Positions 44,403 to 50,954 of a stretch of 63,346 bases of DNA are shown here, in pieces. Location of the stretch: contig JAGOOP010000008.1 in NCBI GenBank assembly GCA_017992455.1, positions 1 through 63,346 of the forward strand, written 5' to 3'. The stretch is from Candidatus Omnitrophota bacterium. GTDB taxonomy: Bacteria; Omnitrophota; Gorgyraeia; Gygaellales; Profunditerraquicolaceae. Each line of letters opens with the position of its first letter. The first letter of the stretch is position 1. The notes under the pieces are model-generated. The model did not search any database. It saw only the letters and a list, made by a program, of their open reading frames with translations, and had not been told where the DNA came from. The position numbers were made by a program, and so were the translations under genes.

Positions 44403-44480
44403 AGCGATGGGAGCCGGGGGTACCTAAAGTACTCTAGCAATAGAGTCCTAAGGTAAAACTGGTGACTGGCGCTAAGTCGT

Positions 44481-45233
44481 GAAGTAAAGTTTGCGACCTT
44501 CCGATGTAAATCGGAATGAGAAATTCGGCTGTATGCTGGAACATCCGTAGTATCTCAAGATACCGAAAGGTGAAAATTCTTGAGTGCGGACAATCAGCAG
44601 GGAAGTCGTAATTGACCCCTCAGAGACTACACGCCGACCTCTTAAGGAGCAAAGCTTGGATAAAATAACCGTTGCTTATCTTCAAGGAACCTTGGGAGAT
44701 TCAACGTATAGCAAATTGCATAAGACGTATAGAATATCTCAGAATAATAGAGAATGGTTGCTTATGCTTAAAAATTTGCTTCAGTCGTTGGAGATCAAAG
44801 GATGGATATATAAAGAAGGCAAATCCAGGGACGTATATGTTCTTGAGACTACCTTCCAATCTTTATCCGGAGATTTTGATCCCTGTTCTCTCGAGACTAC
44901 CGAAGAAAAGCAAGCATATATACGCGGTTATTTTGATGCTGAAGGAGGCACTTCCCGAGTTAATACGGTCAGATTTTATCTGCAGTTCGCAGAGAAAAAT
45001 AAGACACGAATCGAGAAGGTCCGGAATCTCCTGAAAGAATTAGGGATCAATTGCGGGAAAATTCATAATCCCAGCAAGGTAACCGATCCTGATTATTGGA
45101 GATTTTATGTCAGTGCTGATTCCTACGATAAATTCGTTAAAGAAATCGGATCCTGGCATCCTAGAAAGCAGAAGCTTTTATCCAAAAGAGTGAAGATATA
45201 GTCCACGCTCTGTGGCGACACAGGGAGTACGTG
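44481..45233 (+). mobile_element. Group I intron in 16S rRNA (between E. coli-equivalent U1498 and A1499), 753 nt
   Basis: The flanks AAGTCGT|..|AACAAGGTAGCC restore the universal AAGTCGTAACAAGGTA. The 5' exon ends in T and the intron ends in G. IGS GCGAC (44493-44497) pairs with GUCGU via a G.U pair. Core motifs CAGAGACTACACG and GAAGATATAGTCC are present. Confidence 0.85.
44656..45201 (+). CDS. Double-motif LAGLIDADG homing endonuclease encoded in the 16S intron
   Basis: The motifs are 'VAYLQGTLGDST' and 'AYIRGYFDAEGG'. A likely TTG start at 44656 follows an AAGGAG SD (the listed ORF starts at GTG 44584). The TAG stop lies inside the GATATAGTC core motif. Confidence 0.75.
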   Translation: MDKITVAYLQGTLGDSTYSKLHKTYRISQNNREWLLMLKNLLQSLEIKGWIYKEGKSRDVYVLETTFQSLSGDFDPCSLETTEEKQAYIRGYFDAEGGTSRVNTVRFYLQFAEKNKTRIEKVRNLLKELGINCGKIHNPSKVTDPDYWRFYVSADSYDKFVKEIGSWHPRKQKLLSKRVKI

Positions 45234-45845: not shown

Positions 45846-47856
45846 AAGAACTACAATTATAACCGAGTGAGTTATCGACTATTGTCAAGCTACTAAGGGT
45901 ATATGCACGGATGACTTGGTTAGGTGAGGCGATGAAGGACGGGGTAAGCACCGATATGCTTCGGGGAGCAGCAAACATGCTTTGATCCGGAGATTTCCGA
46001 ATGGGGCAACCCTGCGCGTAGAAATACGCGTAACTCTGCGATGAATACATAGTCGTAGAGAGCGAACGGGACGAATTGAAACATCTAAGTAAGCCCAGGA
46101 GAAGAAATCGAATGAGAGTCCCCCAGTAGAGGCGATCGAAAAGGGATGAGTCTAAACCGCGCGAAAATTCCGCAAGGAAAATTTGCGCGGGGTTGCGGGA
46201 CCTCGATGTGATAGTCAGAGGGATAGCAGAATTGCCTGGAAAGGCAAGCCAAAGAGAGTGAGAGCCTCGTAAGCGAAATTCTGATGACGTCTAGAGGTAT
46301 CCCAAGTACCACGGGACACGGGAAATCCTGTGGGAATCCAGGCTGACCACAGTCTAAGACTAAATACTACACCTAAACCGATAGTGCACCAGTACCGTGA
46401 GGGAAAGTTGAAAAGAACCCCGGGAGGGGAGTGAAATAGAACCTAAAATCATATACCTACAAAGCAGTGGAAGGGCTATGCCGTTGGCGCAAGCTGACGG
46501 AATGCCTGACCGCGTACCTTTTGCATAATGGTCCGACGAGTTTATGTTGCAAGCGAGTTTAAGTGTTGCGTGAAAGCGTAACATGGAGGCGTAGGGAAAC
46601 CGAGTGCTAACCGCGCGTTTAGCTTGCAATATAAGACCCGAAGCTGAGTGATCTATCCATGGCCAGGGGGAAGTTCCGGGAAACCGGGATGGACGCCCGA
46701 ACCCTCGAGCGTTGAAAAACTCTTGGATGAGCTGTGGATTGGAGCGAAAGACTAAACAAACTCAGAAATTGCTGGTTCTCCCCGAAACAATTCTAGGGTT
46801 CGCCTTTAGAAACTACATCGGAGGGGTAGAGTGCTGAATGGACTACGGGAGTCTACCGACTTGCTGAGTCCAACCAAACTTCGAATACTACGATGACTAT
46901 CTAAGGAGTAAGACGACGGGGGCCAAGCTCCGTCGTCAAAAGGGTAACAGCCCAGACCACCAGCTAAGGTCCCTAATCATAAGCTAAGTTGTAAAGGATG
47001 TGGATCCGCAATAACAGCCAGGATGTTGGCTCAGAGGCAGCCATCATTTAAAGAGTGCGTAACAGCTCACTGGCCGAGCGAGTCTGCGCCTAAGATGACC
47101 GGGGATCAAGCTTATAACCGAAGCTGTGGGTTCGATCTGCCTTCGGGCAGATAGAGCGGTAGGGGAGCATCGTCCAATTGGGTGAAGCTGTACCGTAAGG
47201 AGCAGTGGACATTGGACAAGGGATTATGTCGGAATGAGTAGCGAAAACGTCTGCGAGAAACAGACGCGCCGAAAGTCGAAGGTTTCCTGGGGAAGGTTAA
47301 TCCACCTAGGGTTAGTCGTGCCTAAGCCGAGGCCTTATGGCGTAGGTGATGGATACAAGGTTAATATTCCTTGACTAACTGATTGGCGTTATCACTTGTG
47401 TGTGACACAGGAGGGACGAGTCTGCGAGGTGTTGGATGTCCTCGTTTTTGCATCCGGAAGGATGCGAAGGGACCCTGAGGTTTCCGAGGGGGAAGTGAAT
47501 CGATTCCACACTGTCCAGAAAAACCACATGAGGAGTCAATCGGTTACACGTACCGGAATCCGACACAGGTAGACCACCAGAATATGGTAAGGCGATCGAG
47601 ATAACCCTCTTTAAGGAACTCTGCAATCTAGCCGCGTAAGTTCGCAATAAGCGGTGCCCTGCCCCGTAAGGGGATGGGGTCTCAGTAAAGTGGATCGGGT
47701 GACTGTTTAGCAAAAACACATCTCTCTGCAAACTCGTAAGAGGACGTATAGGGAGTGACACCTGCCCAGTGCTGGAAGGTTAAGGGAATTCGTCAGTTGG
47801 GAGCAATCCTTTCGAAGCGATGAACCGAAGCCCCAGTAAACGGCGGCCGTAACTAT

Positions 47857-48532
47857 AGGCTGGACCAAATGTAGTTGTAAAATCTGGCTATATGCTGGAA
47901 AATCCCGTTAAGCTGATGGTACATCCCGAATATTATCGGGATCGTGACAATCTGTCAGATAGGGATTATCAGCAGGAAAGACCTGAAGGAGGTCTCCATG
48001 AAAGCTGAAATCGGCTATTATCTTGCCGGTTTTGCCGACGGAGAAGGGAGCTTTAACGTGTCCTTTCGCCCAAGGCAAGACTACAAATCACCATGGAAAG
48101 TTTCTTTGTGTTTCAATATCTCTCAGAAAGATAAAGTTATTCTTGCTTTATACAAACGCTATTTGGGCTGCGGCACACTTCGCGGCAGGCCTGACGGTGT
48201 TTGGTATTTCGAAGTGAATAATCTAAATGCAATCAGGGAGATAGTAATACCTTTCTTCAAAAGATATCCGTTCCTATCAGCGAAGAAAAAACGCGATTTC
48301 GCGAAATTCTGCGAACTTGCCAAGTTGATCACGAACGAAAATCATCTGACAGAAGAAGGTATAAAGAAAATACTTGAGATACGAAGAGACATGAATGATG
48401 GTGGTAAACGAAAATACAGCGAAATGGAGATACTCAGTAAGCTGAAGGAATCCTCAGAGACTATACGCCAGACTCCTCAAACAGGAGATGATATAGTCCG
48501 GTCTTCCGAGGAATCGGAAGTTAACATACACG
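47857..48532 (+). mobile_element. Group I intron, 23S site about L1917 (helix 69 loop), 676 nt
   Basis: GTAACTAT|..|AACGGTCC restores GUAACUAUAACGGUCC. IGS GTAGTT (47871-47876) pairs with AACUAU. The intron ends in G. Core motifs CAGAGACTATACG and GATGATATAGTCC are present. Confidence 0.85.
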
Positions 48533-48543
48533 AACGGTCCTAA
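47998..48543 (+). CDS. Single-motif LAGLIDADG homing endonuclease (I-CreI-like class) in 23S intron 1
   Basis: An ATG at 47998 follows a GGAGG SD. 'YYLAGFADGEGSF' is present. The C-terminus is read through the P7 core. The TAA stop (48541-48543) lies in the downstream micro-exon. Confidence 0.8.
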   Translation: MKAEIGYYLAGFADGEGSFNVSFRPRQDYKSPWKVSLCFNISQKDKVILALYKRYLGCGTLRGRPDGVWYFEVNNLNAIREIVIPFFKRYPFLSAKKKRDFAKFCELAKLITNENHLTEEGIKKILEIRRDMNDGGKRKYSEMEILSKLKESSETIRQTPQTGDDIVRSSEESEVNIHERS

Positions 48544-48546
48544 GGT
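48533..48546 (+). other. 14-nt 23S micro-exon (AACGGTCCTAAGGT, about E. coli 1918-1931) between two introns
   Basis: It is the only rRNA-matching sequence between intron 1 and intron 2. Confidence 0.8.
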
Positions 48547-48740
48547 TAACGTCAAACGCTAGCCTGCTTTGGCAGAGATGCTGAAGAATAATTACCAACT
48601 GTATCGGTGAAACCCGACTCTTGCAAAAGAAGGGCAATACCGAGGGAAGTCGTCAGTGACCCCGTAGAGACTACACGTTGGCTCCTATGCAAATAGGATG
48701 AAGATATAGTCCATGCCAATAGTAATATTGGATTAACATG
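48547..48740 (+). mobile_element. ORF-less minimal group I intron, 23S site about L1931, 194 nt
   Basis: CCTAAGGT|..|AGCGAAATTCC restores CCUAAGGUAGCGAAAUUCC. The intron ends in G. Core motifs GGGAAGTCGT, GTAGAGACTACACG and GAAGATATAGTCC are present. Confidence 0.8.
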
Positions 48741-49310
48741 AGCGAAATTCCTTGTGGGGTAAGTTCCCACGCGCACGAATGGTGTAACAACCTGATCGCT
48801 GTCTCGAAGAGGGACTCGGCGAAATTGTAGTGGCGGTGAAGATGCCGTCTACCCGCATCAAGACGAAAAGACCCCAGAACCTTTACTGCAGCCTATTATT
48901 GGGTTTTGGTTTAAATTGTGTAGCATAGGTGGGAGGCTTTGAGGCCCGGGCGCTAGCTCGGGCGGAGCCGCAATGTGAAATACCACCCTATTTGGACTAA
49001 AATTCTAACCTTCCGGCCTGAATCGACCGGGGGAACAGTGATAGGCGGGCAGTTTGACTGGGGCGGTTCCCTTCTAAAAAGTAACAAAGGGGCCCAAAGG
49101 TTGGCTCAAGCCGGTCGGCAATCGGCTGAGGAGTGTAAGCGCATAAGCCAGCTTAACTGCAAGTCCGACAGGACGCGCAGATACGAAAGTAGGGGCTAAT
49201 GATCCGGTGGTGAAAAGTGGAATTGCCATCGCTCAACGGATAATAGGTACTCTGGGGATAACAGGCTTATCGGGCTCGAGAGTTCACATCGACAGCCCGG
49301 TTTGGCACCT

Positions 49311-49723
49311 CAACATCATGGGGTGGTGCAGGAGCGATCCTGCACATGCATTGGCTAATAACGGTGGAGTCCTTGACGCAAGTCGAGGATAATACCGTGG
49401 GAAGTCGATAGAATAAGCAGTTATTTCAGTGGTCTTTTCTCTTGGTGACAAAAGCATGATGGGTGAAACTAATACTTTGACCTCGAATACATATTCTAGA
49501 AAATGGTTCAAACGTCATTAGACAACCTTTCTGTATTTTGATCGCCTTGAGAAAACCATGTTCTATCTGACCCCGTAACGACTGATTGTGCGGACATTCT
49601 ATCCGGATGTCACCAACGCACATGAGATAGTTGTCAGTACGAGACTATCACACGCCAACTCCGCAACACTGCATAAGCGGATGAAGATATAGTCTAATCC
49701 CACCGGTAACGGTGGATCGATTG
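49311..49723 (+). mobile_element. ORF-less group I intron, 23S site about L2500 (peptidyl-transferase ring), 413 nt
   Basis: GGCACCT|..|CGATGTCGGCTCATC restores GGCACCUCGAUGUCGGCUCAUC. IGS GGGTG (49320-49324) pairs with CACCU. The intron ends in G. Core motifs ACGAGACTATCACACG and GAAGATATAGTCT are present. Confidence 0.8.
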
Positions 49724-49791
49724 CGATGTCGGCTCATCCTATCCTGGGGCTGGATAAGGTCCCAAGGGTCCGGCTGTTCGCCGGTTAAAAG

Positions 49792-49827
<36 letters not shown>

Positions 49828-50571
49828 AAACTGACCGTTGCTGTCTTTAAATCTGGCTATTTGCTGGAAAATCTGGGTATCTCATATTACTAATTGACGA
49901 TATAGTCTCTATATGATACTATGGCGTCGGAAGTGAAAATATATGAGTGCAGATCACCAGCAGGAAAGGCCAAGCGGGATAAAAGAACACTATATCAGTG
50001 GCTTTGTCGATGGAGAAGGCTGCTTCTCGATTACAATTCAGAGAAGCAATAATGTGAGGCTTGGGATTCAAGTAATTCCCGAGTTTCATGTGTCTCAACA
50101 TCAACGAAGAGATGAGGTTCTTTGTGCGATTAAGGAACGATTGGGATGTGGCTATATTAAACCCAATAATCCTAATAATCCAAAAGATCTTACCTCGGTT
50201 TATGTTGTGCGCAATTTAGCCGATATTCGAGACAAAGTTGTGCCATTCTTTAAGAAATATCCTTTGATATCGTCGAAGCAGCAGGACTTTGAGAAGTTTA
50301 ACGAAGTTGTGGCTGCGATGAACAAAGGCGAACACCTGAATAAGAGTGGACTTGCAAAGATATTGAAACTGGCATTCTCGATGAATGACAGTGGAAAATA
50401 TCGCAAGCTGAAAATAGTAGATATATTATCCTATTTGGAATCCTCAGAGACTATACGCCAGAAATCTTCCGCAAGGAGGATCTAAGATATAGTCCGAACT
50501 GCATAGCGATATGCAGAGATTAGCAGAAATGCTTAATCCTTCTACGGTACAATGTAGATGTAACATAATTG
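49828..50571 (+). mobile_element. Group I intron, 23S site about L2604, 744 nt
   Basis: GTGAGACAGT|..|TCGGTCTCTATCTG restores GUGAGACAGUUCGGUC. IGS GCTGTC (49840-49845) pairs with GACAGU. The intron ends in G. It shares AAATCTGGCTAT(A/T)TGCTGGAAAATC with intron 1. Confidence 0.85.
49943..50485 (+). CDS. Single-motif LAGLIDADG homing endonuclease in 23S intron 4 (paralogue of 47998-48543)
   Basis: 'HYISGFVDGEGCF', 'VVPFFKKYPLISSK' and the shared C-terminal 'ESSETIRQ' (read through the P7 core) are present. The TAA stop lies in the J8/7 motif. Confidence 0.8.
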   Translation: MSADHQQERPSGIKEHYISGFVDGEGCFSITIQRSNNVRLGIQVIPEFHVSQHQRRDEVLCAIKERLGCGYIKPNNPNNPKDLTSVYVVRNLADIRDKVVPFFKKYPLISSKQQDFEKFNEVVAAMNKGEHLNKSGLAKILKLAFSMNDSGKYRKLKIVDILSYLESSETIRQKSSARRI

Positions 50572-50954
50572 TCGGTCTCTATCTGATGTGGGCGTTAGGA
50601 TATTTGAAGGGGAGTTCTCCACAGTACGAGAGGACCTGGAGAAGCAGACCTCTGGTGTTCCGGTTGTCCTGCCAAGGGCAAAGGCCGGGTAGCCATGTTC
50701 GTAAGGGATAAGCGCTGAAAGCATCTAAGTGCCAAGCCCACCCCAAGATTAGATATCCCTGGGCCGCAAGGCCCTGAAGGCACCCGGAAGACCACCGGGT
50801 TGATAGGCGAGGTGTGTAAGATCCGTAAGGATTTCAGCTAACTCGTACTAATTGCCAACCGGCTTGACTTTTTTTATAACTCTCAAGGTTATAATGTAGT
50901 TTGACCATAATAATGCAGATGTTGAGTCTTATGTAATATTAATATGACATAAGA

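Follow-up and report, generated by a model that had tools for sequence, protein, structure and literature searches.

The 23S rRNA gene of the 63,346-nt stretch of DNA analysed here (the window) is interrupted in the region of helices 69-71 by two group I introns, inserted at L1917 and L1931 and separated by a micro-exon of only 14 nt. The reading that we favour, and that the sequences make probable, is that the two introns belong to different lineages and splice independently, that the micro-exon is kept in the rRNA, and that the pair is mobile by co-conversion. Each intron would undergo ordinary two-step, guanosine-initiated splicing without needing the other, and both exon junctions would be rebuilt with the micro-exon retained. 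Double occupancy of these two sites has been known since 2007 and is frequent in metagenome-assembled genomes; a single instance adds little, and its worth lies in the survey that surrounds it. What marks the window within this known group is a minimal ORF-less L1931 intron, an endonuclease stop codon located in the micro-exon, the presence of five introns and a probable Omnitrophota host.

Exon map of the 23S rRNA gene

As indicated by Rfam, the rRNA operon of the window is complete and lies on the + strand, with 16S, two tRNAs, 23S and 5S; we counted five introns in it. Rfam returned group I intron matches at 44471-45225 and 48537-48732, and a permissive scan gave weaker ones at 48236-48520, 49426-49716 and 50332-50516. 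The Rfam match to the 23S gene stopped 1.5 kb short of the gene end; its end at 49380 was rejected as an artefact of a model forced over introns, since the gene reaches about 50870. Multi-intron rRNA genes break rRNA annotation as well as primer-based surveys.

The exons were mapped by a BLAST comparison of E. coli rrlB with the operon, which gave four collinear blocks: rrlB 2-1933, 1932-2501, 2501-2604 and 2605-2884 correspond to window positions 45884-47874, 48741-49311, 49724-49827 and 50572-50852, respectively. Together with the Rfam LSU match and the junction sequences, these blocks place the first exon at 45883-47856 (E. coli 1-1917, the last nucleotide being U1917). It is followed, all on the + strand, by the 676-nt L1917 intron (47857-48532), the 14-nt micro-exon AACGGUCCUAAGGU (48533-48546), the 194-nt L1931 intron (48547-48740) and the third exon (48741-49310, E. 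coli 1932-2500). The micro-exon AACGGTCCTAAGGT is identical to E. coli nucleotides 1918-1931, with no mismatch, and GGCGGCCGTAACTAT/AACGGTCCTAAGGT/AGCGAAATTCCTTGT is the E. coli sequence once the three exon pieces are joined. The junctions read ...GTAACTAT/AGGCTGG...ACATACACG/AACGGTCCTAAGGT/TAACGTC...TTAACATG/AGCGAAATTCC: both introns have a U immediately 5' and a G as their final nucleotide, and are inserted directly after E. coli U1917 and U1931. The initial annotation had proposed a 676-nt intron, a 14-nt exon and a 194-nt intron, and the rrlB alignment and the junctions show these boundaries to be exact to the base. Its placing of one intron at L1917 and another at L1931 also held; both are group I introns, each has a complete core of its own, and each occurs alone elsewhere.

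Predicted structure of the L1917 intron

Against RF00028 the L1917 intron scored 29.2 bits (E = 2.6e-5), which is below the gathering score, and the Rfam alignment placed P1 inside the ORF. Both the low score and the misplaced P1 are accounted for by the roughly 450 nt of ORF that split P6 from P7. The Rfam alignment was dropped for a hand-made P1-P10 model, tested on the window and 11 homologues after the ORF body had been removed and the ends aligned. In these 12 sequences the 66 pairs of the model were formed in 96.4% of the cells (compare with 32-48% when the partners were slid), and none of 500 shuffles reached the observed values. Double changes were found at 26 pairs, in P3, P5, P5a, P5b, P8 and P9. 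The intron is without P2, and its P5 is extended (P5a, P5b).

P1 (47851-47876) is formed between the exon sequence AACUAU (47851-47856) and the guide GUAGUU (47871-47876), a pairing invariant in all 12 aligned homologues. It places the wobble pair U47856.G47871 at the splice site, and the terminal G is G48532. Within the P1 loop, the sequence GGACC (47862-47866) is complementary to GGUCC of the micro-exon (48536-48540), and we read this pairing as the P10 of the L1917 intron. In the window and 77 further loci, a (G)GACC motif occupies the same place in 66 of the 78 L1917 introns, whose loops are otherwise divergent, and it is present whether or not L1931 is occupied; all 78 introns contain at least four contiguous bases complementary to the first 10 exon nucleotides. 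By its P1, its terminal G and its covarying core, on which membership rests, the L1917 intron is predicted to be a complete group I ribozyme. The subgroup names used in the literature for such introns are IB4 (PMC11019260) or IC1-like (PMC1995217).

An endonuclease gene that ends in the micro-exon

The ORF of the L1917 intron (47998-48543, + strand, ATG at 47998) encodes a 181-aa single-domain LAGLIDADG_1 homing endonuclease, as judged from its Pfam and PDB matches. It scored 74.9 bits against PF00961 (cut-off 23.1), it matches the LAGLIDADG domains of I-PanMI, I-SmaMI and I-OnuI in the PDB with E-values down to 2e-41, and its motif YLAGFADGEG, acidic residue included, is invariant in the homologues. 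The protein collection held 4220 homologues, the named ones being from Omnitrophota. A related enzyme from CPR bacteria, I-ShaI, cuts its own site and dimerises (PMC11270868).

The ATG is preceded, at a distance of 6 nt, by the Shine-Dalgarno sequence GGAGG, part of which falls in the P6a hairpin. The final third of the ORF overlaps P6', P7, P3', P8, P7' and P9; therefore one stretch encodes both protein and ribozyme core. The ORF then crosses the 3' splice site (...CAC GAA CGG TCC TAA), the G of GAA being the terminal G of the intron. The micro-exon holds the last two codons as well as the stop codon TAA (48541-48543, micro-exon nucleotides 9-11), and the conserved C-terminus of the protein is ...NINERS. 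Such an ...NERS-stop ending in the micro-exon was found in 14 of the 78 loci (the window and 13 of 77), and in 61 loci the stop lies within the intron. Because the stop lies in the micro-exon, an intron that has been excised would, as an mRNA, lack a stop codon, and we infer that in this lineage the protein must come from RNA still holding the micro-exon.

Predicted structure of the L1931 intron

The L1931 intron matched RF00028 over the full length of the model with 50.3 bits, a narrow margin over the gathering threshold of 50. It has no ORF and comprises helices P1-P9, with a short P5, a short P8, a P2 and GNRA loops on L8 (GCAA) and L9 (GUAA). We aligned the window with seven non-identical homologues of 184-205 nt from genomes and metagenomes, and RNAalifold recovered P1, P2, P4, P5, P6, P7, P8 and P9 from this alignment. 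In a hand model to which P3 and P10 were added, the 54 pairs were formed in 93% of the cells, compared with 31-41% for slid partners. Eleven pairs, in P2, P5, P6 and P8, showed changes on both sides; P3, P4, P7 and P9 are invariant or nearly so and thus uninformative for covariation. The minimum free energy fold of the single sequence contains the same helices (z = -2.47), and its centroid has P3 in place of P7, a swap that is expected because the two form a pseudoknot. P7' is at 48707-48711. By covariation, the L1931 intron is predicted to be a complete, minimal group I ribozyme. A further pairing suggested by RNAalifold, between CG.UC of the micro-exon and G48740 plus AGCG of the 3' exon, is invariant in every column, and we rejected it as unsupported.

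The Rfam alignment, RNAalifold and the coordinates agree on P1 (48543-48565), in which the exon sequence AGGU and the intron nucleotides UA (48543-48548) pair with the guide UAGCCU (48560-48565). The wobble pair U48546.G48562 lies at the 5' splice site, and G48740 precedes the exon sequence AGCG. A P10, between the guide CGC (48557-48559) and GCG of the 3' exon (48742-48744), is weak, being paired in five to six of eight homologues. The initial annotation had found for this intron a guide of only 4 bp. The exon part, AGGU:GCCU, is indeed 4 bp, but two intron pairs extend P1 to 6 bp.

In both introns the ribozyme helices, P1 and the P3/P7 core among them, are kept, with compensatory changes that would be expected only under selection for ribozyme folding. 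The insertion points moreover lie in and beside helix 69, which is a functional centre of the ribosome. These observations argue against insertions that go unspliced, being either kept in the mature 23S or excised without ligation, which would leave a fragmented rRNA. Precedents exist, since 23S-fragmenting intervening sequences are known in bacteria (PMC11270868) and the L1931 intron of Simkania is reported to be unspliced, according to a title cited in PMC11270868; for the window we nevertheless consider this outcome very unlikely.

Occupancy of L1917 and L1931 in other genomes

To place the window among its relatives, L1917 was surveyed through the relatives of the endonuclease, with one genome per species. 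This gave 250 loci, and the states of both sites were readable in 77 of the best 80. Among these 77 representative-genome loci, 46 have an L1917 intron with an endonuclease gene and no insertion at L1931, and 31 have both introns with an intact micro-exon. All 14 nucleotides of the micro-exon are conserved in 30 of these 31 other double-intron loci, and the last one (L056) has a single substitution. The same arrangement around the same micro-exon in 31 other genomes means that it is not due to chance. Its hosts are Omnitrophota, Elusimicrobiota, Planctomycetia, Chloroflexota, Gammaproteobacteria (Ca. Foliamicus), Armatimonadota, Ca. Berkelbacteria, Aminicenantes and others. As counted in the best 80 of the 250 loci, about 40% of the genomes whose L1917 intron has an endonuclease gene thus have both neighbouring homing sites of helices 69-71 filled. 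The closest genome, L002 (Ca. Omnitrophota RA.bin37), shares 89% identity in the endonuclease and 86% in the 23S region, and an activated-sludge contig is 99.85% identical to the window over 4761 nt. The host of the introns is probably a member of Omnitrophota, as far as these relatives indicate.

We also surveyed L1931, using metagenome contigs that carry the window-type junction and guide (GGTCCTAAGGTTA...GCTAGCCTG), whatever the state of L1917. In 43 of the 66 contigs obtained, the upstream sequence is the intron-less ACTAT/AACGG, i.e., there is no L1917 intron, and 37 of these 43 solitary introns contain an endonuclease gene and measure 656-724 nt. A P1 of 4+2 bp is thus the normal P1 of solitary introns of this L1931 lineage. 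The initial annotation had taken the 4-bp guide as a hint of dependence on context; this does not stand, the guide GCUAGCCUG being present in 43 L1931 introns without an L1917 intron. Where both sites are occupied, an L1917 intron with an endonuclease gene accompanies an L1931 intron that has one in 6 contigs and an L1931 intron without ORF in 6 others, and an ORF-less L1917 intron accompanies an L1931 intron with an endonuclease gene in 7. Altogether, the survey yielded all mixes of endonuclease-bearing and endonuclease-less partners, with micro-exons down to 6 nt.

Use of the micro-exon and order of splicing

Nucleotides 4-8 of the micro-exon (GGUCC) form the P10 of the L1917 intron, to which A1 may add a pair with U47870; nucleotides 9-10 are unpaired; nucleotides 11-14 (AGGU) are the exon strand of the L1931 P1; and nucleotides 9-11 (UAA) are the stop codon of the L1917 ORF. 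With these paired segments mapped, the micro-exon can be assigned both roles that the initial annotation had required of it, P10 partner of the first intron and P1 strand of the second. The two guide-bound segments are separate and lie 2 nt apart. In some of the other L1931 lineages found, the guide GCCUUAG pairs with micro-exon nucleotides 8-14, and the P10 and P1 helices would be directly abutting.

Because the guide-binding segments do not overlap, no splicing order is forced by the sequence. During transcription, the core of the first intron and its P10 partner precede the completed core of the second, with a head start of only about 170 nt. With 2 nt between the segments, simultaneous docking of both guides may be sterically impossible, which would impose some order. 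That the P10 and P1 segments are so close speaks for ordered or interdependent splicing, or for a short L1931 intron whose splicing relies on the L1917 intron or on maturase activity of the L1917 endonuclease. Dependence would also fit the short ORF-less L1931 form, which is without the extended P5 of its autonomous relatives and whose only known setting is next to an endonuclease-bearing L1917 intron, and the rarity of a perfect 7-bp P10 where L1931 is occupied too (1 of 32 L1917 introns, compared with 10 of 46); however, this last trend is weak, and both it and the short-form association are confounded by relatedness. The guide segments, on the other hand, are free of overlap, the same 4+2-bp P1 serves 43 L1931 introns without an L1917 neighbour, L1917 introns stand alone in 46 of the 77 loci, and the short L1931 intron retains all core helices, with covariation. 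We thus regard an ordered or dependent pathway as unlikely and favour independent splicing of the two introns.

In P7 the two introns hardly differ (GACUA(U):(A)UAGUC), and this likeness could point to a single composite element, either a twintron or one large ribozyme that removes the 14 nt too. According to PMC10136302, exon skipping is on record for Twort orf142 (23-nt exon) as well as for the Coxiella 23S (34-nt exon). Several observations make a composite element extremely improbable here. The 14 nt are the universally conserved 23S nucleotides 1918-1931, exact in all double-intron loci but one; each intron has a complete core of its own and is solitary elsewhere; and the two introns lie side by side, neither inside the other. 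The guides, P2, P3 and P5 all differ, and with differing P3 helices and guides a hybrid core would be mismatched. As for the single composite (twin) intron evoked in the initial annotation, structural modelling gave two separate cores, and nested introns were absent. Engineered tandem introns with differing splice-site recognition elements lead to exclusive exon inclusion (PMC10136302). For the window, exon skipping is expected to be a minor side reaction of two independent ribozymes because their guides and P3 helices differ.

Probable gene loss in the L1931 intron and proposed mobility of the pair

The long relatives of the L1931 intron have a LAGLIDADG ORF in P8 and a longer P5 region, whereas in the window P8 is a hairpin of 6 bp and P5 is short. 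According to our model, the L1931 intron would have lost the endonuclease gene that these relatives carry in P8. Besides the window, 2 genomes and 6 metagenome contigs contain the short ORF-less form (184-205 nt); in every case its neighbour is a 676-679-nt L1917 intron with an endonuclease gene, and we never saw the form without one. The sequences are closely related, and the association may reflect one or two evolutionary events only. The loci L013 and L016 carry a variant of the short form.

The L1917 endonuclease would cut the empty allele, and the L1931 intron, located 14 bp from the break, would be co-converted; at the DNA level the intron pair is probably one mobile unit. This closeness to the break made by the neighbour's enzyme would explain how the L1931 intron persists and spreads after the loss of its gene. 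LAGLIDADG homodimers recognise sites of about 20-22 bp, each half-site taking up some 10-11 bp. With half-sites of this size, an allele that already holds one of the introns should, thanks to the 14 bp of native sequence, keep the nearer half-site for the enzyme of the other intron, and this would explain why double occupancy is frequent.

The 194-nt L1931 intron could also be a true dependant, co-converted only through the L1917 endonuclease and spliced only in a fixed order or with the aid of this same protein as a maturase. The pair would then be one mobile element with two ribozymes. We find this quite improbable and retain the reading in which the pair shares its mobility and the two introns splice independently.

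Comparison with described intron pairs

The arrangement is not new: L1917 and L1931 have been described as jointly occupied in Synechococcus sp. C9 (PMC1995217) and in a diatom plastid (PMC11019260). The 23S gene of Synechococcus sp. C9 contains introns at L1917 (743 nt), L1931 (666 nt) and L2593 (Haugen et al. 2007, PMC1995217), the first two enclosing the same 14-nt micro-exon as in the window. Its L1917 intron likewise has no P2, a complex P5 and a single-motif LAGLIDADG ORF that extends from P6 through P7, P3 and P8 (PMC1995217). The differences lie in the endonuclease genes, present in both introns of Synechococcus sp. C9 whereas the L1931 intron of the window is a 194-nt, ORF-less intron with a P2, and in the ORF stop, located in P9 in the former and in the micro-exon in the latter (PMC1995217). 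The host differs as well, the window coming from a probable Omnitrophota with a five-intron operon. In the plastid rrl of Navicula vanseea both sites are also occupied by introns with LAGLIDADG genes; it differs from the window in being a plastid gene and in having an endonuclease gene in each of the two introns (2024, PMC11019260).

The Coxiella burnetii 23S gene, which the initial annotation had named as a related case with a 34-bp exon between L1917 and L1951, is indeed of this kind, going by the title and the data that PMC11270868, PMC10136302 and PMC1995217 cite: Cbu.L1917 and Cbu.L1951 flank a 34-nt exon (Raghavan et al. 2007, cited in PMC11270868 and PMC10136302). As far as these citing papers go, it resembles the window in having two group I introns of different subgroups around a very short 23S exon, one of them at L1917. 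The endonuclease gene, however, is in the L1951 intron of Coxiella and in the L1917 intron of the window, and self-splicing with some exon skipping has been demonstrated experimentally for the former, according to PMC10136302 and PMC11270868, whereas self-splicing in the window is predicted.

In CPR bacteria, introns with LAGLIDADG_1 genes occupy 23S positions 1917, 1931, 1952, 2593, 2604 and 2657 (Tsurumaki et al. 2024, PMC11270868). That survey and the window have in common LAGLIDADG_1 genes in group I introns and multi-intron rRNA genes in uncultivated bacteria; the survey covers CPR only, without an analysis of micro-exons or of the pairing of neighbouring introns (PMC11270868). Introns 2 and 3 of Twort orf142 and the engineered Tetrahymena tandems also enclose a short exon (23-24 nt) and pose the same choice between inclusion and skipping. 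Their introns are near-identical, so that a joint ribozyme is possible, unlike the two introns of the window with their different guides, P2, P3 and P5 (PMC10136302).

Shorter exons between neighbouring introns

An exon of 14 nt is not the shortest that we found. Two loci of the L1917 survey, L015 and L020, contain L1917+L1923 pairs separated by a micro-exon of 6 nt. The initial annotation had judged a 14-nt exon to be even tighter than that of Coxiella; these loci, together with the 31 of 77 in which L1917 and L1931 are both occupied, show that the arrangement in the window is not unusually tight. In the 6-nt pairs, the P10 of the first intron and the P1 of the second must compete for the same six bases, and an obligatory splicing order is most likely. 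Natural intron pairs provide material for asking by what means exon skipping is avoided in tandem group I ribozymes and whether these splice in order, and the L1917+L1923 pairs of L015 and L020 are especially suited to this and more informative on splicing order. In another contig, L121, the introns sit at L1911 and L1931, neither has an ORF, and the exon that they enclose measures 20 nt.

Micro-exons and guide pairings of neighbouring 23S introns

The shortest exons separating two introns were found in L015 and L020, two of the surveyed genomes, where the micro-exon AACGGT (6 nt; L015:1520-1525 and L020:1567-1572) lies between an L1917 intron and an L1923 intron. In both loci the guide GCCGTT of the L1923 intron is complementary to all six micro-exon nucleotides. 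The P10 helix of the L1917 intron would have to compete here with the P1 helix of the L1923 intron for the same bases. The last nucleotide of the L015 L1923 intron is apparently A and not G. Another pair is present in the metagenome contig L121, in which an ORF-less intron after U1911 (~255 nt ahead of position 2447, the L1931 junction) and an ORF-less L1931 intron of 282 nt are separated by the 20-nt exon AACTATAACGGTCCTAAGGT.

We compared P10 length across L002-L081. Of the L1917 introns in this set, 10 of 46 solitary ones but only 1 of 32 having an L1931 neighbour form a P10 of seven perfect base pairs (exon nucleotides 1-7), a difference that may reflect relatedness alone.

Endonuclease ORFs and intron 3' ends

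The stop codon of the endonuclease ORF carried by the window L1917 intron is located at positions 48541-48543, within the 14-nt micro-exon (48533-48546), meaning that the excised intron would be devoid of a stop codon. Fourteen of the 78 L1917 introns have the same ...NERS stop ending; in 61 of the 78 the endonuclease stop is internal to the intron. The two window introns flanking the micro-exon have similar 3' tails, GUUAACAUACACG at 48521-48532 (L1917) and AUUAACAUG at 48733-48740 (L1931). The element UAAC(A/G) is kept in nearly all L1917 introns, including those whose ORF ended earlier, and is thus probably an RNA element.

In two genomes (L031:2344-3070 and L068:2337-3105), the L1917 intron is without an ORF (269 nt in L031, 416 nt in L068) and the L1931 site is occupied by an intron of the L1917 family. 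This intron has ~70% nucleotide identity to the window L1917 intron from position 21 onward and 71-73% identity for the endonuclease, ordinary L1931 enzymes reaching only 31-37%. The guide of these L1931 introns is changed to GCCTTAG. This looks like either retargeting from one neighbouring site to the other or transfer of the endonuclease gene.

Other introns of the window operon

The operon contains five introns in total. The 16S group I intron (44481-45233, 753 nt; RF00028, 54.4 bits) follows E. coli U1498, splitting the decoding-site strand as GUCGU|AACAAGG, and encloses a LAGLIDADG_3 ORF (44584-45201). Two further group I introns interrupt the 23S gene, an ORF-less one at L2500 (49311-49723, 413 nt; Rfam 39.6 bits) and one after U2604 (49828-50571, 744 nt; Rfam 40.1 bits) with a LAGLIDADG_1 ORF (49943-50485); each is preceded by U and ends in G. 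Because of the introns, the Rfam 23S match stops at 49380, ~1.5 kb short of the real 3' end.
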